A stretch of DNA of 50,276 bases, from positions 1 through 50,276 of the forward strand of contig DTYI01000244.1 of assembly GCA_012961935.1 (NCBI GenBank), given 5' to 3'. Shown here in pieces: positions 4,525 to 31,342 of the stretch (position 1 is its first letter; each line of letters opens with the position of its first letter). This DNA comes from Thiotrichales bacterium (GTDB lineage: Bacteria; Pseudomonadota; Gammaproteobacteria; CAZUMV01). The notes beneath the pieces are model-generated. The model was not told the origin of the DNA, searched no databases, and saw only the letters and a list, made by a program, of their open reading frames with translations. The position numbers and the translations under genes were made by a program.

Positions 4525-5667
4525 CTAAAATCTTATTTTAACTTCTTTCTCATGCTCCATGCTTTCTATTGCTTCCTCCAGATCAATTTTCTGGTCGTTC
4601 CCAATTTTTTGTTCAGCCAAAATCTCAAACAGTTCTTTTTGTTCCAGGGTGTAGCTTTCACCAGTTTCTTTCTGGATATAGGCGGCCCAGGGTACAAATT
4701 TGGTGAGCGGAAATATTTGTCCTTCCCGGGGTGAAATGTCTATGTTGATACCGGAGACAAATAGCAGGTTTTTGTTTTGGTAACTGTGCTCCTTTACGAT
4801 GCTGCGGTAGGTTCGGTCGAACTCGATCTGGGTATTGATCTGGGCGGCGAGCAGCATCGGTTCCTTGCTGGTCACGATCCAGGGCATCGGATCAATCAGG
4901 TTGCCTTCCAGATGTGAGAGGCCCTCAATGTCACGTGAAAAGTGACGCTCAAAGTGAAACAGGTCAGCGGTTAGCAAGGAGCCAATCGGTTTTTTGGTCT
5001 CTGGCCATGCGTTGCCTGTGGCGGTGATGAACTCGGCTGAAGCCAGGAATGTTTTGCTCGTGCTTTGAGCGCGAATAAATCTGAAACGGTCATCATTCGC
5101 AACGGCAATCAACTTTTTCAGCGCAAGCATCAGACCTTCATCGCGGTGCGCAGAAAGCAACTGGTTATCCACTGTGATGAGGAAATCATCACCATTACGC
5201 TCGAGAAAAATGTTGTCCTGGGCGTAGTGGTATTCATCCAGATACCATTCGATAGTATGAAATATCTTGCCACAGTTTGCTGTGGCGCACTGGTCTTCTC
5301 TTTGCAGGCGACGGTAGTTGCCGAAGGTTGCATTCTCCGGGTCGTAGCCGACATGACTGGCCTGCACGATCACCATATCCTTGCCGTGGCTGGCATGCGG
5401 CCCATGCCGATCAGTGGCGACGATGCCGCCAACACGGCCATGATTAAAAGGAAAACCACCGAAGTGTTTGGCGAGCAGGATAATCGGATAGCCCTGGCTT
5501 TCGTCAGAACAGAATGCGCGTGATGGGGTGATCTTGCCGGGCTGCATGCCCAGCGAAAGTGCAAAGTTATAAAGCCGCGGTACAAACAGGCTGTAACGCA
5601 TCATCATGCCGTCGAGCTGAAAATTGCCCGGGGTGGTTTGAAGCTGTGAAGAGGCGAATGAATACAT
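4525..5667 (-). CDS. Conserved hypothetical cytoplasmic protein; possible LCIB-like beta-carbonic-anhydrase fold (hypothesis only)
   Basis: 380-aa ORF with no signal peptide or TM segment, lying directly downstream of the DAB-like operon on the same strand. It contains FCSDES (Cys53, Asp55), ASHVGYD (His105) and ANCGK (Cys132). This spacing resembles the Cys-His-Cys Zn site described for LCIB-family proteins. I did not recognise the family outright. Confidence 0.8.
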   Translation of the reverse strand: MYSFASSQLQTTPGNFQLDGMMMRYSLFVPRLYNFALSLGMQPGKITPSRAFCSDESQGYPIILLAKHFGGFPFNHGRVGGIVATDRHGPHASHGKDMVIVQASHVGYDPENATFGNYRRLQREDQCATANCGKIFHTIEWYLDEYHYAQDNIFLERNGDDFLITVDNQLLSAHRDEGLMLALKKLIAVANDDRFRFIRAQSTSKTFLASAEFITATGNAWPETKKPIGSLLTADLFHFERHFSRDIEGLSHLEGNLIDPMPWIVTSKEPMLLAAQINTQIEFDRTYRSIVKEHSYQNKNLLFVSGINIDISPREGQIFPLTKFVPWAAYIQKETGESYTLEQKELFEILAEQKIGNDQKIDLEEAIESMEHEKEVKIRF

Positions 5668-17402: not shown

Positions 17403-17978
17403 ATGAAATTTTGGCTAGCAATAATTTCAGGTTTATGGGCGACTGCCGGGCTGGCGGAAGGCCTTGCCCAGTATGAGATACCCATGGAATCACAAGGCGC
17501 CCGCACATTCTATGTGCAATCAACCATCCCGGGTTGCGGCGAATCAATGTTGCTGGTGGACACAGGCTCAGGCCACAGTGTCATCAATGAAGAAACACTT
17601 GCGAGTCTCATGTCTAACGGCAATGCAGAATTTCTGAAAAACTTGCAGGGCATCATGGCGGATGGCAGCACAAGAATTGTGCCGTTGTACAGGATCTCCG
17701 CCATCACGCTGGGCGGTGGCTGTGTTATCCGCGACGTGGAAGCGGCCGTATTACCTGGTAATGCTCGCCAGATTCTCGGCATCAGTGCGTTGCAAAAAGC
17801 GGCACCTTTCGGATTTTCATTTGAGCCACCCATTTTAAGTCTTAGCAACTGTGAACTACCGGGTGTGCAAACAGCGAACGAAGAAGTTGTGCTGCCTGCA
17901 GAAGCACCTGCTGTGCTACCGGCTGATACTGATCAGAAAACGCCTGTAGAAACACAGGATCTTGCGGCTGCAAGTTAG
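17403..17978 (+). CDS. Secreted retropepsin-like (clan AA) aspartic protease
   Basis: 191 aa with a signal peptide (MKFWLAIISGLWATAGLAEG) and the retropepsin signature LLVDTGSGHSVI. Confidence 0.75.
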   Translation: MKFWLAIISGLWATAGLAEGLAQYEIPMESQGARTFYVQSTIPGCGESMLLVDTGSGHSVINEETLASLMSNGNAEFLKNLQGIMADGSTRIVPLYRISAITLGGGCVIRDVEAAVLPGNARQILGISALQKAAPFGFSFEPPILSLSNCELPGVQTANEEVVLPAEAPAVLPADTDQKTPVETQDLAAAS

Positions 17979-17997: not shown

Positions 17998-18030
17998 AAA
18001 AGCTCCGCTAGTGAACAGCGCGGAGCTTTT
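17998..18030. terminator. Bidirectional Rho-independent terminator between convergent genes
   Basis: An 11-bp stem AAAAGCTCCGC / GCGGAGCTTTT with an 11-nt loop. It is flanked by a T-run on the plus strand (TTTTCCCC) and an A-run upstream, which reads as a U-run on the minus strand. Confidence 0.7.
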
Positions 18031-18105: not shown

Positions 18106-18363
18106 TTACTTCTTCTCAGGCATATCCATTGCAGGAGCAGGAATTTCAGAAGTTTCAAACTTTGCAAACTCTTCAACGCTCAGCTCGCCATTTCCATCTG
18201 CATCCAGTGTTTTCCACTGCTCAGTCAGACCTGGCAGTGCAGCAGCTTCAGCTTCACTGATAGAGCCGCTTTTGTCTGCATCCAGCGCAGAGTAAGCATC
18301 ACCAGCAACAGCAACGGTAGAGAAGAGGGCAGCCAGAGTAGCGATCAATAATTTCTTGGACAT
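18106..18363 (-). CDS. Secreted small EF-hand calcium-binding protein (two canonical loops)
   Basis: 85 aa with a signal peptide ending AVA/GD. Two 12-residue EF loops are present: DADKSGSISEAE and DADGNGELSVEE. An AGGAG RBS sits 7 nt upstream of the ATG. Confidence 0.85.
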   Translation of the reverse strand: MSKKLLIATLAALFSTVAVAGDAYSALDADKSGSISEAEAAALPGLTEQWKTLDADGNGELSVEEFAKFETSEIPAPAMDMPEKK

Positions 18364-18430
18364 TTCATATGCTCCTAATTGTTAAGGTTTGAGTTATCAT
18401 AAAATCGCACATGCGATTGCTTTAAGTTAT

Positions 18431-18446
18431 AGCAACCCTTGTGCCA
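18431..18446 (-). promoter_or_regulatory. Sigma54 (-24/-12) promoter driving the EF-hand protein gene
   Basis: The minus strand reads aaaacTGGCACaagggTTGCTataa. This is an exact TGGCAC-N5-TTGCW match with correct GG/GC spacing. The implied start site is near 18420, 57 nt upstream of the ATG. Confidence 0.75.
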
Positions 18447-18521
18447 GTTTTAATAACGGTTAATTATTCAGTGAGTTATATTACAAATCTGATCCGCATG
18501 TTAAAGGAGCCACCCTTATTT

Positions 18522-18539
18522 CGTCGCCAGCAGGCGACA
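18522..18539. promoter_or_regulatory. Candidate enhancer-binding-protein (GlrR-like) site CGTC-N10-GACA
   Basis: CGTCgccagcaggcGACA matches the E. coli GlrR motif TGTC-N10-GACA in 7 of 8 positions. It is centred about 110 nt upstream of the implied sigma54 start site. Confidence 0.5.
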
Positions 18540-18587
18540 CTATTTTTTAAGGATCAGGATGATTGGTATTGCTATCAGGAATTTTGG

Positions 18588-18605
18588 CGTCTCCAAATGG
18601 CGACG
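18588..18605. promoter_or_regulatory. Second candidate GlrR-like site CGTC-N10-GACG
   Basis: CGTCtccaaatggcGACG has the same half-site spacing and sits 66 nt from the first site, about 176 nt upstream of the start site. A degenerate third copy, TGTT-N10-AACA, lies at 18634-18651. Confidence 0.45.
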
Positions 18606-18661
18606 GATTGCATAACGCATTGAAAATTATAGATGTTTCTTGTAAATAACAACAGGCTTTC

Positions 18662-20116
18662 ATGAAGATGCGGTTCTCCAGTTCGATTCGTCAGCTTACC
18701 GTTCTGGGCTTCCTGCTGGTTGTATTACCTTTGATGTTTGCGCTGATCAGCACGGTATTCCAGGTCGACAGGTTGGCAGTCAAAATGCAAAAAACTGTGC
18801 GCGACTCGGCCCAGGCCGTTGAGGCGAGTCGCCTGATCATTGCTCAGGCATTAAGCATGGAGCGTAGTGCGGAGCAGTACGGCGTTTTGCGTGATCCCAT
18901 CCTGCTGGAACGTTATCAGACCCAGCGCGTGCAACTGGCAGAGGCGATTACACGTTTATCAGCTTTACCGCTGGAGCAGGACTTATCATCCCAGATAGAA
19001 AAGTTGGTACAACGAGAACAGGCATTGCATAGTCAATTACTGCAATGGGCCGAACAGGCGGGTAATGATGCGCAGAGACTAGATCCCGAATTAAAACTGG
19101 CCGAACAGATCCGCCCCATACCTCAGGCAGTCACGCAAATGGTCACTGATGACAGTGCCTCCATGACCAAACAAATCGAGCGTGTTCAGCGCATGCTACT
19201 CTGGCAGGTCATTGCCCTGGTGCCTCTGGCACTTTTGCTCGCAGCTGTTTTCAGCGTACTGATTACCCGGCCATTACGGAACATGGGGAAAGTTATCCGA
19301 CGGCTGGGTGCCGGTGACTTTACATCGCCGGTTATTGTTTCGGGTCCGCAGGATGTGCGTGAGCTTGGAGAGCAGCTCGACTGGATGCGCGAGCGGCTGG
19401 CCGAGCTGGATCAACAGAAACTCAGGTTTCTGCAACACATGTCGCATGAGTTGAAAACGCCGTTAACGGCAATTCGCGAAGGCAGTGAATTATTATGTGA
19501 TGAAGTGGTCGGAGAACTCAGCGATGAACAGAAAGAAGTAACAACCATCTTGCGGGAAAACAGCTTACAATTGCAGGCACAGGTTGAGGGGTTACTGAAT
19601 TTCAATCTTGCCCTGGCTCAGGATAAGCCCGCTCAACTAAAGACAGTCGACCTGTCTGTATTAATTCCTGAAGTGATAACCAAACACCAGCTGGCTATGC
19701 GCACCCGAAGTATCCAGGTAAAAACGAACATTAGCCCCGTAGAAATCCAGGGAGAGCCGGAACAGTTGCGGACAGTATTTGATAATTTGCTTTCAAATGC
19801 GATTAAATATTCACCCGATGGCGGCGTAATCAGAGTCGAGCTGGGTGCAGAAAATCAACAGGTCTGTCTGGATGTAATTGATGAGGGCGCAGGCATCAAC
19901 ACTGCAGAGCGACAACATATTTTTGAGCCATTTTTTCAGGGCCAGCAATTACCCAAAGGCCCCGTTAAAGGCAGCGGACTGGGGTTGGCCATTGCGCAAC
20001 GATATGCCCGTCTACACAATGGTAAAATTATGGCGCTGGAAACACAGCAAGGGGCGCACCTCAGGGCTTGTCTGCCTCAGCAACAATCAGCAGATGGAAA
20101 TGATAAAAGGAAATAA
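18662..20116 (+). CDS. glrK: Sensor histidine kinase, GlrK/QseE-like (2 TM, HAMP, HisKA, HATPase)
   Basis: 484 aa with an H-box FLQHMSHELKTPLTAI, an N-box LLSNAIKYSP and G-boxes DEGAGI / GSGLGLAI. It is followed by a lipoprotein gene and a sigma54 response regulator, which is the qseE-qseG-qseF gene order. Confidence 0.8.
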   Translation: MKMRFSSSIRQLTVLGFLLVVLPLMFALISTVFQVDRLAVKMQKTVRDSAQAVEASRLIIAQALSMERSAEQYGVLRDPILLERYQTQRVQLAEAITRLSALPLEQDLSSQIEKLVQREQALHSQLLQWAEQAGNDAQRLDPELKLAEQIRPIPQAVTQMVTDDSASMTKQIERVQRMLLWQVIALVPLALLLAAVFSVLITRPLRNMGKVIRRLGAGDFTSPVIVSGPQDVRELGEQLDWMRERLAELDQQKLRFLQHMSHELKTPLTAIREGSELLCDEVVGELSDEQKEVTTILRENSLQLQAQVEGLLNFNLALAQDKPAQLKTVDLSVLIPEVITKHQLAMRTRSIQVKTNISPVEIQGEPEQLRTVFDNLLSNAIKYSPDGGVIRVELGAENQQVCLDVIDEGAGINTAERQHIFEPFFQGQQLPKGPVKGSGLGLAIAQRYARLHNGKIMALETQQGAHLRACLPQQQSADGNDKRK

Positions 20117-20120
20117 AGAC

Positions 20121-20708
20121 ATGCGGTTTTTAACAGCAGGGCTTTCAGTGATGATGCTACTGACATTGTCAGCCTGTGCGTCGGTCAATAGCGGGAAACA
20201 AAAAGTACAAAAACAGGAGCCGGTGCAGGTAACGCATCATTGTGCCGTGCTGAATTATTATGAAGCGCTAACGGAAATGACCGCAAATGAATTAGCGCAG
20301 GAAAAACAGATGCTGCGCGAGAACCTGAATTACAACCAGAGTAGTTGTTATCAGTTGCGGCTGGTTATGTTGCTGATGTTGCCTGAAGCCGGAGTAAAGG
20401 ACGACAAGGAGGCAGAGCAAATACTGGATGATGTTTTGTATAAAGAAGCCAGTTTATTGCCGCAAGATCGACAAATTGCAAGACTATTATCAGATCAGAT
20501 TCAATGGCGTAAAAAAATTCGAAATAGCCAGCAAGCATTAAAAAAACAATTAAAAAAAGAGCGTGCAGCTTCCTTGAATTTGCTCGAACGCCTGGCTGAT
20601 ACACAATCAAAATTAAATCAACTTAAAAATATAGATAAAAATATTAATCAACGAGAACAGGAAATCAGCACGCCCTCAACAGATAAAATTCCTCATGAAC
20701 CAAAATAA
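20121..20708 (+). CDS. qseG: Lipoprotein with a coiled-coil C-terminus, QseG/YfhG-like by position
   Basis: The track ORF 19878-20708 overlaps the kinase. The internal ATG at 20121 gives MRFLTAGLSVMMLLTLSAC with a lipobox. The protein is 195 aa and its 3' end overlaps the regulator start by 14 nt. Confidence 0.65.
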   Translation: MRFLTAGLSVMMLLTLSACASVNSGKQKVQKQEPVQVTHHCAVLNYYEALTEMTANELAQEKQMLRENLNYNQSSCYQLRLVMLLMLPEAGVKDDKEAEQILDDVLYKEASLLPQDRQIARLLSDQIQWRKKIRNSQQALKKQLKKERAASLNLLERLADTQSKLNQLKNIDKNINQREQEISTPSTDKIPHEPK

Positions 20709-22050
20709 AATACTACTGGTAGACGATGATCCGGGAATATTAAAGCTATTATCACTACGGCTGGAGGCGGCAGGCTTTCTTATTGAAACAGCAAGTAGTG
20801 GCCATCAGGCTTTGGGGAAGCTTGAGGCATTTCATCCGCATTTAATTATTACGGATTTGCGCATGGAAGGCATGGACGGATTAGCACTGTTCAACATTGT
20901 GAATGAAAAATATCCTTCTCTTCCAATTATCATGTTAACCGCGCATGGCACCATTCCTGATGCGGTCGATGCAACGCGAAAAGGTGTGTTCAGTTATTTG
21001 ACCAAACCGTTTGACAGTCAGCAATTAATTCTGAATATCAACACGGCATTAAGTCAGTGCTATCCGGCGAGTGAAACAACAGACGAGCAACATGATTCAA
21101 ATTGGCGACGCGAAATAATCAGCCAAAGCCCGGCAATGGAAGAATTATTGAAACAGGCTCAACGCGTTGCGCAGAGCGAAGTCAGTATTCTTATTCAAAG
21201 TGATAGCGGCACGGGCAAGGAGCTACTCGCAAGAGCGATACACAAAGCCAGCCCGCGAGCAGACAAACCTTTTGTCCCGATTAATTGTGCGGCCATCCCA
21301 GATAACCTGCTTGAGTCTGAATTATTTGGTCACCGCAAAGGCGCGTTCACGGGTGCGGAGCGTAACCACACTGGATTAATTGAAACCGCCCATGAAGGTG
21401 TTTTATTTCTGGATGAAATTGGTGATATGCCACTTGAATTTCAGGCGAAATTATTGCGTGTTTTACAGGATGGAGAAGTACGCCCGGTGGGTGCAACCGA
21501 ATCCATTCCAGTGAATACGCGCCTCATTTCTGCGACGCATTCGGATCTGGATGCGGCGATCAAGGCAGGCACGTTTCGCGAAGACCTGTATTATCGTCTC
21601 AATGTTGTGATGCTGGAATTACCGCCGCTGAGTAAACGTCGCGAGGATATTCAATTGTTAGCCAATCATTTTTTAAACGATTTACGCAAGCGTTCTGAAA
21701 ATTGTGTGGCTAAATCATTTTCTCCAGAAGCGATGGAGGTGCTCATGACCGCACCCTGGCCGGGTAATATTCGTCAGCTTCTCAACGTGGTCGAGCAGGT
21801 TGCTGTGCTGACTGTTTCACCGGTTATTTCAGAGTCGCTGGTGAACAAAGCATTGCGGGGAAAAACGGGTGAAATTTCAGCACTGGCCGATGCCCAGAGT
21901 GACTTTGAAAGAAATTATCTAGTGCAAATATTGCAAATGACACAAGGTAATGTGACACAGGCTGCACGCCTGGCAAAACGCAACCGCACCGAGTTTTATA
22001 AATTACTCAACCGCCACCAGCTCGAGCCCAAAGTTTTTAGGCATGACTGA
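20695..22050 (+). CDS. glrR: Sigma54-dependent response regulator (REC + AAA+ + Fis-type HTH), GlrR/QseF-like
   Basis: 451 aa. The receiver domain has DDD..D and TDLRM. The AAA+ domain has Walker A GDSGTGKE, the GAFTGA sigma54-contact loop and ESELFGH. A C-terminal HTH is present. Confidence 0.85.
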   Translation: MNQNKILLVDDDPGILKLLSLRLEAAGFLIETASSGHQALGKLEAFHPHLIITDLRMEGMDGLALFNIVNEKYPSLPIIMLTAHGTIPDAVDATRKGVFSYLTKPFDSQQLILNINTALSQCYPASETTDEQHDSNWRREIISQSPAMEELLKQAQRVAQSEVSILIQSDSGTGKELLARAIHKASPRADKPFVPINCAAIPDNLLESELFGHRKGAFTGAERNHTGLIETAHEGVLFLDEIGDMPLEFQAKLLRVLQDGEVRPVGATESIPVNTRLISATHSDLDAAIKAGTFREDLYYRLNVVMLELPPLSKRREDIQLLANHFLNDLRKRSENCVAKSFSPEAMEVLMTAPWPGNIRQLLNVVEQVAVLTVSPVISESLVNKALRGKTGEISALADAQSDFERNYLVQILQMTQGNVTQAARLAKRNRTEFYKLLNRHQLEPKVFRHD

Positions 22051-28867: not shown

Positions 28868-31342
28868 TTGTTTCGACGGTTTCTTTGGGTAAGCTTGCTT
28901 GCTCTGACGGCTTGTGGTGGCGGTGGCGGGAGCCAGCCAGAACCACCTCCGAAGTATTCTCTTTCTGGTCAGGTCACAGCGCTTTCCGGCATGGCCTTTG
29001 ATCAGGATGTGAACGACCCGTCAGCGCCTTACGCCAGCAATGACAGTTTTGCAGAAGCGCAGTTTTTGCCCAGCCCTTTTTCTCTGGGTGGTTATGTGAA
29101 TGTTGCGGGTGCGGGTCAGCCGGGCCGGTCACAGGTCAGCGGGGATCTGGTCGATTTCTACAGGTTACATCTGGTCAGAGATCAGGTTGTTACACTCAAA
29201 ATAATAGTCGGGACTCAGAGTGAGCTGTTTTTGCGTCTGTACAAAGTGAATGATACATCTGCTGTCATTGAAGGCACAGGTAATGCTGTCAGTAAAACCG
29301 TGATTGCTCCCGACAACGGAGAGTACTATTTAACAGTTGGTGCCGTTTCAGGTGCCTCTAGATATACATTAGTTACAGGTCTGGTAGGTGTTTCATCCCA
29401 GGCAGCTGCGAGTATGAATTTTGTGCCTGGCGAGGTGCTGGTTAAATTCAGGCCAGGTACTGAATCTCGTCGGAGTAGCACCCTTGCTGCCGATTTTGAT
29501 CTGGCTATGCGAACAAGCAGTCAGCAGATTTATCGGTATGAGCTTGTTAATGCGGCGATTCAGCGCAGCGCTGGGCATGATGAAATAGTACGCCTGAAAC
29601 AACAAACGCTAGCAGTTATTGCATCTTTGCGTCAGCGCCCTGATGTCATTTTTGCCGAGCCAAACTTTTTAGTCACGGTTTCTTCCACCGAGCCTGATGA
29701 CCTTTTTTATCCTCTGCAGTGGCATTATCCGATTATTAATCTACCTCAGGCCTGGGATCTGGAAACAGGCAGTGAGAATGTGATAGTCGCCACTGTTGAC
29801 ACAGGTGTTTTGATGGATCACCCCGATTTACAGGGCAAGCTGCTTCCGGGATACGATTTTATTTCTGACCTCCAACGGGCTGCAGACGGAGACGGGCTGG
29901 ATCCTGACCCCACCGATCCCGGTGATCCGGCCAACCCTGAGAACAGCGCTGCCTTTCATGGCACGCATGTTGCTGGCACGATCGGCGCAAACAGTGACAA
30001 TGGAGCAGGCGTTAGCGGTGTGGCATGGGGAGTAAAGATCATGCCGCTGCGGGCAGTCGGCGCGATTGATGGTAACGTTGCCGATGTGGCTGAAGCGATA
30101 CGCTATGCGGCCGGTTTACCCAACGTTTCTGGACAGGTTCCTGTTCAAACCGCCGATATCATCAACATGAGCCTGGGCACCACTGATTTCTCACAGACGC
30201 TGGCAGACGCCATATCTGATGCCAGCCAGGCGGACGTTATTTTGCTGGCCGCAGCCGGGAATGAAAGCAGTAATGTCCCGCAGTATCCAGCTGCTTTACC
30301 CGAAGTAATTTCAGTCAGTGCGGTAGACGCGACCCGTCAGCGTGCTGCATATTCCAATTTTGGTCCGAGTATCGATGCGGCAGCTCCCGGTGGTGGTAGC
30401 GATGATATCAACGGTGACGGTTTTCCCGACGCCGTACTGAGTACGCTTGGTGATGGAACAGGTAAACGGGACTATCAGTTCCTGCAGGGCACCTCCATGG
30501 CCTGTGCGCATTTCTCAGGCGTCGTTGCTTTAATGGAATCCATATACAAAAGAAATAATCAGGATCTGACACCCGCCACGCTCAATAACCTTTTATTCAA
30601 TGGTGATTTGACAGAGGACATGGGTGACAGTGGCCGCGATGATATTTATGGCCACGGCCTGTTAGATGCCTACAAAGCAGTTGCGGCTGCGACAGGCGGT
30701 GCAACAGGAACCACGCCTCCCCCAGCGCAGCCTAAGCTGGTTATCTCACCGACAAGTTTGAATCTTGGAACTATGGTGTCAGAAGGCATCATCACGGTTT
30801 CAAATCAGGGCGGGGATGCGCCGGGGTTCGTGATTTTTGAGTTCGGCGCAGACAAACCCTGGCTGCAAGTGACTGAGGTGGCGGGTGAGGTAGATGCTCA
30901 GGGTTTGGGTCAGTATCGTGTGGTTGCAGATCGAAATCATCCTGATCTTGCGACTGACGATCTTTATACCGGGGTGGTTTACTTTAAGGCAAACAATCCG
31001 GCAGTGAATTCCAGCATGTTTGTTAATCTGCAAGTCAGTTCGAAAGTCGGTGCGCCAGATGCGGGACATCTTCATATTGATTTGATTGATGCCTCAACAC
31101 AGAAGGTTATTCAGACAAAAAAGACGAGTCCGCTCGATGGGGTGTACCAATACCAGTTTGACAATGTGCTGGCGGGTGAATACCTGATCACGGCGCATAC
31201 AGATACGGATAATAATCTGCAACCCTGTGAAACAGCTGAGATCTGTGGAGCCTATCCGACTCAGAGCGCAGCAAGTGTTATTGAAGTCGATAAGGATATG
31301 GCCAATCTTGATTTTGCGACCAATCTGTCTCTGAGTTTTTAA
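28868..31342 (+). CDS. Subtilisin-like (S8) serine protease lipoprotein with N-terminal and C-terminal beta-sandwich domains
   Basis: 824 aa with a TTG start and a lipobox LLALTAC followed by a Gly run. The catalytic triad contexts are VATVDTGV, HGTHVAGT and GTSMACAH. Confidence 0.9.
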   Translation: MFRRFLWVSLLALTACGGGGGSQPEPPPKYSLSGQVTALSGMAFDQDVNDPSAPYASNDSFAEAQFLPSPFSLGGYVNVAGAGQPGRSQVSGDLVDFYRLHLVRDQVVTLKIIVGTQSELFLRLYKVNDTSAVIEGTGNAVSKTVIAPDNGEYYLTVGAVSGASRYTLVTGLVGVSSQAAASMNFVPGEVLVKFRPGTESRRSSTLAADFDLAMRTSSQQIYRYELVNAAIQRSAGHDEIVRLKQQTLAVIASLRQRPDVIFAEPNFLVTVSSTEPDDLFYPLQWHYPIINLPQAWDLETGSENVIVATVDTGVLMDHPDLQGKLLPGYDFISDLQRAADGDGLDPDPTDPGDPANPENSAAFHGTHVAGTIGANSDNGAGVSGVAWGVKIMPLRAVGAIDGNVADVAEAIRYAAGLPNVSGQVPVQTADIINMSLGTTDFSQTLADAISDASQADVILLAAAGNESSNVPQYPAALPEVISVSAVDATRQRAAYSNFGPSIDAAAPGGGSDDINGDGFPDAVLSTLGDGTGKRDYQFLQGTSMACAHFSGVVALMESIYKRNNQDLTPATLNNLLFNGDLTEDMGDSGRDDIYGHGLLDAYKAVAAATGGATGTTPPPAQPKLVISPTSLNLGTMVSEGIITVSNQGGDAPGFVIFEFGADKPWLQVTEVAGEVDAQGLGQYRVVADRNHPDLATDDLYTGVVYFKANNPAVNSSMFVNLQVSSKVGAPDAGHLHIDLIDASTQKVIQTKKTSPLDGVYQYQFDNVLAGEYLITAHTDTDNNLQPCETAEICGAYPTQSAASVIEVDKDMANLDFATNLSLSF

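Follow-up and report, generated by a model that had tools for sequence, protein, structure and literature searches.

What does a kinase-lipoprotein-regulator system of the QseE/QseG/QseF type (also GlrK/QseG/GlrR) control when the gene beside its kinase encodes a secreted EF-hand protein rather than a small RNA (sRNA)? The question is raised by contig DTYI01000244.1 (assembly GCA_012961935.1) of a Thiotrichales bacterium, a stretch of 50,276 nucleotides that was analysed at its full length and is called the window here. In this window, a gene for an 85-amino-acid protein with two EF-hands is divergent from an operon encoding a sensor kinase, a lipoprotein and a sigma54-dependent regulator, the intergenic region measuring 298 bp. 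QseE/QseF has long been studied as an enterobacterial virulence and envelope regulator, and its physiological signal is poorly defined. Its direct targets in enterobacteria are few, namely glmY and, in some species, glmZ (PMC3045617), as well as rpoE (PMC6075780). The organization of the locus and of its relatives makes it quite probable that the adjacent QseE(GlrK)/lipoprotein/QseF(GlrR)-like system controls the cis-linked EF-hand gene directly, through sigma54. A known signalling module and promoter design would then be joined to an apparently undescribed class of output gene.

The promoter is the starting point of the argument (Table 1). A preliminary description of this DNA had placed an exact sigma54 promoter, TGGCAC-N5-TTGCT, upstream of the EF-hand gene, and our analysis confirms it; the predicted transcription start is near 18421, and no overlapping sigma70 promoter was detected there in a promoter scan of the window. 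The exact consensus has two matches in the whole window. The other one (TGGCACGCATGTTGCT, 29959-29974, plus strand) is a coding coincidence, lying inside an 824-amino-acid open reading frame (ORF, 28868-31342) where it encodes HGTHVAG, which we take to resemble the catalytic-histidine motif of subtilisin-like (S8) proteases. If that ORF is indeed an S8 protease, such genes may produce intragenic sigma54-like matches generally.

Two palindromic boxes lie farther upstream, 66 bp apart, with their centres at about -110 and -176 from the predicted start, in agreement with what had been described. Their pattern, YGTC-N10-GACR, is matched four times in 50 kb versus 2.1 expected, and two of the four matches are in the EF-hand intergenic region; on a rough Poisson estimate, the chance of at least two matches in a given 300 bp is about 1e-4. 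The consensus over 32 boxes is cTGTCgCC-N4-GgCGACAg, the outer GTC/GAC being nearly invariant. The inner positions vary without retained complementarity, which fits a protein-binding palindrome and does not fit an RNA hairpin. The consensus of the GlrR site is TGTCN10GACA, IHF (integration host factor) sites of the form WATCARXXXXTTR are found near site ABS3, and IHF is essential for the glmY sigma54 promoter (PMC3045617). In the window, the AT-rich and possibly bendable stretch noticed earlier could be sharpened to a conserved IHF-like site between the proximal box and the promoter: across loci, a block TAAgTnnCTGAAT stands at a fixed offset from the -24 element, and the positions conserved are those that the IHF consensus specifies. 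A degenerate third copy of the activator site (TGTT-N10-AACA, 18634-18651), also proposed in the preliminary description, does exist in the window and is found in 0 of 17 related promoters, so we attribute it to chance.

The comparison with related loci carries most of the weight. Homologues of the EF-hand protein come mainly from metagenomes and metagenome-assembled genomes (MAGs), and in four of five contexts selected by this protein the gene is divergent from a kinase-lipoprotein-regulator operon with different outer flanks, the exception being the weakest homologue. In a pattern-free MAFFT alignment of five intergenic regions, the only conserved parts are the two boxes, the TAAnTnAnTGAAT block, the GG-N10-GC promoter, the leader repeat and the ribosome-binding site, together with an A/T run beside the proximal box. 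The preliminary description had proposed checking whether the gene and its upstream sites recur beside the kinase in related genomes, and they do. Searching genomes with the kinase alignment returned 14 GlrK-like loci, 13 of which have the EF-hand gene with the promoter and boxes (the gene being degenerate in one of them, L017), and the same combination is present in 4/4 further loci found by kinase similarity alone (L028-L031). The GG-N10-GC promoter scores 9-11 of 11 in the related loci compared and in L028-L031.

The geometry is also kept. Box centres are 85-88 and 152-157 bp from the GG in the window and in 15 of the 17 related promoters, two Colwellia loci (L025, L026) being different, and over all 17 related loci the distances from the -24 GG are 75-88 and 135-157 bp. 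In L028 both boxes are displaced by 11 bp, close to one turn of the helix, and are centred 75 and 141 bp from the GG, with the 66-bp spacing intact. In L021, L023 and L029, which have the EF-hand gene ahead of the kinase gene in tandem, the boxes accompany the sigma54 promoter. In the Colwellia type of system (kinase identity 34-35%), a secreted EF-hand protein of 101 amino acids is encoded by a divergent gene that has a sigma54 promoter and at least one good box. The elements resemble the experimentally defined GlrR sites, and their kind and geometry are strictly conserved over many loci and three gene arrangements. The inverted repeat found where the mRNA is predicted to begin probably forms a 5′ stem-loop, or is possibly an operator overlapping the start site; a hairpin is predicted at the equivalent place in the leader in most of 16 relatives, with per-sequence folding matching the position in L001, L010, L011, L013-L019, L020 and L022, the last two with another sequence.

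The regulator is 56% identical to E. coli GlrR over its full length, with the RNRTEFYKLL of the helix-turn-helix (HTH) region identical, and its best NCBIfam model is GlrR with 603 bits, followed by NtrC with 431 bits. Over 418 residues, the kinase has 37% identity with E. coli GlrK, and it is 100% identical to a protein (P0034) from a MAG labelled 'Chromatiales bacterium'. Its periplasmic motif MERS..QY reads ALSMERSAEQY, compared with ALEMERSYRQY in E. coli; kinase R68 aligns with QseE R70, which is essential (PMC12691602), and QseE R73 is replaced by E71. In NCBIfam, which appears to be without a GlrK model, E. coli GlrK itself best matches CreC.

A lipoprotein gene is found between the kinase and regulator genes in all related loci. 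In the window, the lipoprotein is all-alpha in an AlphaFold2 (AF2) model (predicted local distance difference test, pLDDT, 80), and its long C-terminal helix has the motif LKNIDKNINQRE. In searches for homology to QseG, there was no match to the NCBIfam QseG model, nothing significant by BLASTP and a probability of 1.9% by hhalign, and the QseG structures 7x6f, 9m06 and 9m08 were not in the top 50 of a Foldseek search of the AF2 model against the Protein Data Bank (PDB). At this same 1.9% probability, hhalign places LKNIDKNINQRE on QseG LTDIERQLSTRK with L168/R178 corresponding to L209/R219, two QseG residues that are essential for formation of the QseG-QseE complex (PMC12691602).

The EF-hand protein has, as read from its sequence, a Sec-type signal peptide at residues 1-20 (MSKKLLIATLAALFSTVAVA, followed by GD) and two loops of 12 residues that are conserved in the homologue alignment. 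Four Pfam models (EF-hand_7, EF-hand_1, EF-hand_5 and EF-hand_6) exceed their gathering cut-offs, and a PDB sequence search returned EF-hand proteins, with a best E of 1e-10. An AF2 model built on 26 homologues, with a core pLDDT of 74-83, contains two helix-loop-helix units and short beta bridges. D28, E39, D54 and E65 are invariant in the family alignment, as is the segment EA..P.L..Q between the loops. With a paired helix-loop-helix, ligands at loop positions 1, 3, 5 and 12, Gly6 and a hydrophobic residue at position 8, the protein belongs to the EF-hand proteins, and the earlier description of an exported protein with two canonical loops was borne out, its export being predicted. Identity with lanmodulin was considered and rejected, given a score of 18.3 bits for the LanM model versus a cut-off of 135, two loops and not four, and Ala instead of Pro at loop position 2.

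From these elements the following course of events could be proposed. The membrane kinase, probably aided by the lipoprotein, would phosphorylate the sigma54-dependent regulator, which would then bind the two palindromes about 110 and 176 bp upstream of the start. A bend at the IHF-type site would bring the regulator to the sigma54-RNA polymerase at TGGCAC-N5-TTGCT, where ATP hydrolysis would open the promoter and give rise to a monocistronic transcript some 430 nt long that begins at about 18421 and stops at the terminator. The product would be exported by Sec, and removal of the signal peptide would leave about 65 residues in the periplasm, with a single canonical EF-hand pair. Binding by the regulator, dependence on sigma54 and IHF, and export are what we infer from the conserved elements. 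That the protein binds Ca2+ is speculative, as is a role in buffering or reporting divalent cations at the envelope.

Table 1. Positions of the features discussed, counted from the first nucleotide of the window.
Feature	Position	Strand	Basis or remark
Bidirectional intrinsic terminator, hairpin AGCTCCGC...GCGGAGCT between A and T runs	18001-18027	both	sequence and terminator scan; 3′ end of the EF-hand mRNA and of gene 17403-17978
EF-hand gene, 85 amino acids, proposed output gene	18106-18363	minus	ORF and Pfam
EF-hand loop 2, DADGNGELSVEE, residues 54-65	18169-18204	minus	canonical D1, D3, N5, G6, L8, E12
EF-hand loop 1, DADKSGSISEAE, residues 28-39	18247-18282	minus	canonical D1, D3, S5, G6, I8, E12
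Ribosome-binding site AGGAG, 8 nt 5′ of the EF-hand ATG	18372-18376	minus	sequence; GGAG kept in intergenic alignment
Leader inverted repeat AATCGCACATGCGATT, AATCGCA..TGCGATT, at predicted mRNA 5′ end	18403-18418	minus	hairpin scan
Sigma54 promoter TGGCAC-N5-TTGCT (-24/-12), TGGCACAAGGGTTGCT	18431-18446	minus	exact consensus match
IHF-like site ATTCAGTGAGTTA, one mismatch to WATCARNNNNTTR	18466-18478	plus	between proximal box and promoter
Proximal GlrR/QseF-type activator site CGTCGCCAGCAGGCGACA	18522-18539	palindrome	centre 86 bp upstream of -24 GG
Distal GlrR/QseF-type activator site CGTCTCCAAATGGCGACG	18588-18605	palindrome	centre 152 bp upstream of -24 GG
GlrK/QseE-like sensor histidine kinase	18662-20116	plus	Pfam HAMP, HisKA, HATPase_c
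Lipoprotein, 195 amino acids, lipobox LSAC, in QseG position	20121-20708	plus	ORF; overlaps regulator start
GlrR/QseF-like sigma54 enhancer-binding response regulator	20695-22050	plus	Pfam REC, Sigma54_activat (AAA+), HTH_8

On the other side of the EF-hand gene, a gene for a secreted retropepsin-like aspartyl protease (Pfam Asp_protease_2; 17403-17978, plus strand) converges on it, and the two have the bidirectional terminator in common. This neighbour is also found in L004 and L005, and in no other compared loci.

Several points weigh against a direct link between the operon and the EF-hand gene. The start site, the binding and the expression are all predicted from sequence, and Ca2+ binding is read from motif matches alone; of the calcium-binding envelope output that the preliminary description had suggested, the canonical EF-hands stand and the binding itself is conjectural. 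Of the earlier GlrK/QseG/GlrR-like assignment, the GlrK-like kinase, the GlrR-like regulator and a lipoprotein gene between them are upheld, but the lipoprotein could not be linked to QseG by sequence or by fold. With 603 bits, the regulator is below the GlrR equivalog cut-off of 763 bits, and the proximal box with its T-run scores as a plus-strand terminator. In L017 the EF-hand gene, which lies upstream of the kinase at about positions 1340-1430 of that locus, has an early stop, frameshifts and one loop left while its promoter and boxes are intact, and it is either a pseudogene or an assembly error. In L024 (kinase 53% identical), the same promoter type with boxes drives not an EF-hand gene but a unit of about 226 nt (4790-5040, minus strand of that locus), which has a promoter TGGCACGGTTACTGCA, a 20-codon ORF MFQITLHKGVETKDRLSDSK, strong hairpins (z = -4.4) and a terminator, and is a candidate sRNA or micro-protein gene; no GlmY/GlmZ Rfam match was found in it at gathering score or at E up to 10. 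Given these two exceptions, the EF-hand output is not universal. Furthermore, the later box scans are pattern-based and thus partly circular, the five-region alignment being pattern-free, and the comparison loci are mostly MAG or metagenome contigs with inconsistent taxonomic labels, which makes the number of independent lineages uncertain. Near-identical gammaproteobacterial modules, including L013-L019, are labelled Desulfuromonadaceae, Desulfobulbaceae, Lysobacterales, Xanthomonadales, Chromatiales and Planctomycetia, which suggests binning or naming errors in public records.

Could the palindromes serve something other than the EF-hand promoter? They could be operators through which the divergent kinase operon regulates itself, or the proximal palindrome could be a plus-strand terminator, the link to the EF-hand gene then being incidental. 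From the end of the distal box to the kinase ATG there are 57 bp, GTCGCCAGCAGGCGAC with ACTATTTTTT after it has a terminator-like score on the plus strand, and the five-region alignment shows a conserved A/T run beside the proximal box. However, it is the distance to the sigma54 promoter, not that to the start of the kinase gene, that is constant for the boxes; in L021, L023 and L029 they follow the EF-hand promoter, and in other clades boxes of the same type are found with a sigma54 promoter downstream of the regulator. Upstream of the proximal box, moreover, no plus-strand gene or promoter is present for which a terminator would be required, and the inner stem positions of this box are not kept complementary; as an intrinsic terminator this box was rejected for its lack of covariation and for tracking the sigma54 promoter. 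We therefore regard this explanation as very improbable. No more credit goes to the view that the sigma54 promoter is real but is activated by another enhancer-binding protein encoded elsewhere, with a coincidental likeness to GlrR sites. Genomes of this kind have many NtrC-family activators, one of the XylR_N type being near the module in L010, and the regulator is below the curated GlrR cut-off, but the box consensus equals the experimentally defined GlrR consensus with the inner bases included, the HTH decapeptide is the same as in E. coli GlrR, and the promoter co-occurs with the regulator operon in dozens of loci with differing flanks. The low probability given to the terminator, the operator-only and the other-activator explanations comes from the boxes travelling with the sigma54 promoter through three arrangements and matching the GlrR consensus.

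A different matter is what the protein is for. Instead of being an effector, it could chiefly serve the kinase or lipoprotein as an accessory sensor or feedback partner, so that sigma54 induction would close an autoregulatory loop, as in zraP-zraSR and cpxP-cpxRA. This is compatible with direct control of the EF-hand gene by the adjacent system and differs only in the purpose of the protein. ZraP and CpxP are small periplasmic proteins that are divergent from, and induced by, the two-component systems that they inhibit, and by analogy with ZraP on ZraS and CpxP on CpxA the EF-hand protein may feed back on the kinase. Its gene is tightly linked to the kinase gene through three gene arrangements, a tiny single EF-lobe would be less usual in a bulk buffer than in a regulator, and the invariant EA..P.L..Q segment could serve as an interaction surface. 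However, the interaction with a partner is putative, and the unrelated outputs found behind the same promoter type elsewhere (glycine-zipper, EF-hand-BON and FeeM-like proteins) fit a variable output cassette better than a dedicated co-sensor. A feedback role is thus possible, although we lean against it.

Those other outputs came from a metagenome scan with the GlrR C-terminal DNA-binding region, which gave 80 loci. The order kinase-lipoprotein-regulator is retained in them, and the profile of the window-type lipoprotein weakly matches the interposed ORF in 50 of the 52 loci with a detected kinase. The sigma54 promoter and GlrR-type boxes are present in about 57 of the 80 loci, at distances of 75/141, 76/141 or 86/152 bp, and in many of these they are located just downstream of the regulator gene. 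The automatic classification of outputs was crude, leaving 20 promoters with unclassified ORFs, and the counts are approximate. Small secreted EF-hand proteins are the output in the clade that resembles the window, and EF-hand-BON fusions or other small EF-hand proteins are found in L062, L063, L082, L090, L099, L103, L104 and L109. The secreted fusion of an EF-hand pair with BON, of about 165 amino acids and behind a promoter of the same type (L062, 7427-7927; L090, 10403-10900; also L063, L082, L103, L104 and L109), is a second, independent architecture tying the QseEGF-like system to EF-hands.

Membrane proteins with a CxxCG motif follow this promoter type in about 22 loci. They have 90-210 amino acids, one transmembrane helix and the motif C..CG(V/I)(V/I)(E/D)SI, with this arrangement about 150-250 nt after the regulator stop wherever that stretch is present, and were seen in L040, L042, L044, L046, L047, L049, L052, L068, L070, L071, L077, L080, L083, L084, L088, L091, L096, L105 and L107. 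The L077 protein has a glycine-zipper domain (Rick_17kDa_Anti), and those of L042 and L084 have no Pfam match. A FeeM-like N-acyl amino acid synthase gene is directly behind the sigma54 promoter and boxes, after the regulator, in L038, L064 and L106, and a FeeM-like/Acetyltransf_5 gene was also observed after the EF-hand gene in L011 (8306-8938) and L012 (762-1394). In L098 (1060-2243), three tandem and nearly identical EF-hand paralogues are divergent from the kinase, with two good boxes and a deviant -12 element (TGGCACAGCAATTGAC). In the wider family, the cis-linked outputs thus include several alternatives, of which the EF-hand protein is one.

The preliminary description had called the three-component system widespread, which was already published: qseEGF clusters are widespread in Gamma- and Betaproteobacteria and in Acidithiobacillia, with purL and glnB synteny, according to a 2025 mBio article that describes no targets outside glmY and mentions no EF-hand genes (PMC12691602). 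A link between GlrR/QseF or sigma54 and an EF-hand or calcium-binding target was found neither in that article, nor in the GlrR promoter paper, a 2025 survey of sigma54 regulons and targeted literature searches, most subscription journals being outside their coverage, so that an earlier report is possible. What the non-enteric relatives add is that they tie the regulator, its DNA site and the promoter design to a secreted EF-hand protein, while other clades tie them to BON or glycine-zipper envelope proteins. Such outputs lead to the hypothesis that the system monitors the envelope or its divalent cations, and the recurrence of the EF-hand gene beside this system in many uncultured bacteria from the sea and from sediments suggests that the system has a part in calcium or cell-envelope functions. 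It would also be a case in which a signalling module is conserved while its one cis-linked output gene is exchanged in evolution, a protein gene for an sRNA gene or the other way round. Among cultured bacteria, Colwellia (e.g. strain Arc7-635) carry a GlrK-like kinase of the Colwellia type, the full module being found in MAG or metagenome loci of that type, and these strains may give an experimental entry point.

A broader scenario could also be drawn, which we offer as tentative and are more inclined to doubt than to accept. QseEGF-type systems, ancestrally and in most lineages, might be envelope or divalent-cation circuits with a cis-encoded sigma54 output cassette (EF-hand protein, EF-hand-BON fusion or glycine-zipper membrane protein), GlmY being a late replacement at the purL-proximal position and the EF-hand protein forming, with kinase and lipoprotein, a Ca2+-dependent feedback sensor. 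If true, this would hint at the kind of signal that QseE detects.

In regards to known systems, exported bacterial proteins with canonical 12-residue EF loops include Pseudomonas aeruginosa EfhP and lanmodulin. The window protein differs from both in consisting of a single EF pair in the roughly 65 residues left after removal of its signal peptide, and it is without the loop position 2 proline that is typical of lanmodulin. We know of no secreted bacterial EF-hand protein of this kind under QseF or sigma54 control. The zraP/zraSR system of E. coli and Salmonella, in which a small periplasmic metal-binding protein is expressed from a divergent sigma54 promoter under its own NtrC-family regulator, has its architecture in common with the window, where it can be followed at the level of genes only: a divergent gene for a small exported protein, a sigma54 promoter and an adjacent NtrC-family regulator. 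However, ZraP is a zinc-binding protein of the CpxP/Spy family with no sequence relationship to the EF-hand protein, and ZraSR has no interposed lipoprotein as the window operon does.

The closest comparison is with the enterobacterial system itself. The order kinase, lipoprotein, sigma54 regulator is common to the window and to QseE/QseG/QseF, and the published qseEGF clusters are matched in gene order, in the equivalent of QseE R70 (R68) and in those of QseG L209/R219 (L168/R178) (PMC12691602). Unlike QseG in those clusters, the window lipoprotein is not recognised as QseG by NCBIfam, BLAST, hhalign or Foldseek. The upstream region does copy the glmY promoter, as had been claimed: both have a -24/-12 promoter, far-upstream sites with an IHF-type site between, and a target gene that adjoins the kinase gene. 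Upstream of E. coli glmY, ABS1 (TGTCGCTTTCTGGCGACA) and ABS2 (TGTCTCTTTTTAGCGACA) are, as read from the E. coli sequence, 63 bp apart, close to the spacing in the window. The window boxes, CGTCGC-N6-GCGACA and CGTCTC-N6-GCGACG, compare with TGTCGC-N6-GCGACA in ABS1 and TGTCTC-N6-GCGACA in ABS2, so that the GC-rich core GTCGC-N6-GCGAC is common to the proximal box and ABS1 and the core GTCTC-N6-GCGAC to the distal box and ABS2. Measured from the -24 GG, the window boxes are at 86 and 152 bp, compared with 100 bp for ABS2 and 163 bp for ABS1, and the window family has two conserved sites where glmY of E. coli, Yersinia and Salmonella has three. The target is divergent in the window, whereas glmY is upstream of the kinase on the same strand, as is the EF-hand gene in L021, L023 and L029, and in L029 purL lies upstream just as in the E. 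coli order purL-glmY-glrK. Neither the window nor four related loci gave an Rfam match to GlmY or GlmZ, and the earlier statement that the output is a protein rather than an sRNA holds at the window locus, to which its scope is confined, a GlmY-like sRNA elsewhere in the genome being possible. The same kind of promoter serves an sRNA in the case of glmY and would serve the gene of a secreted EF-hand protein in the window.

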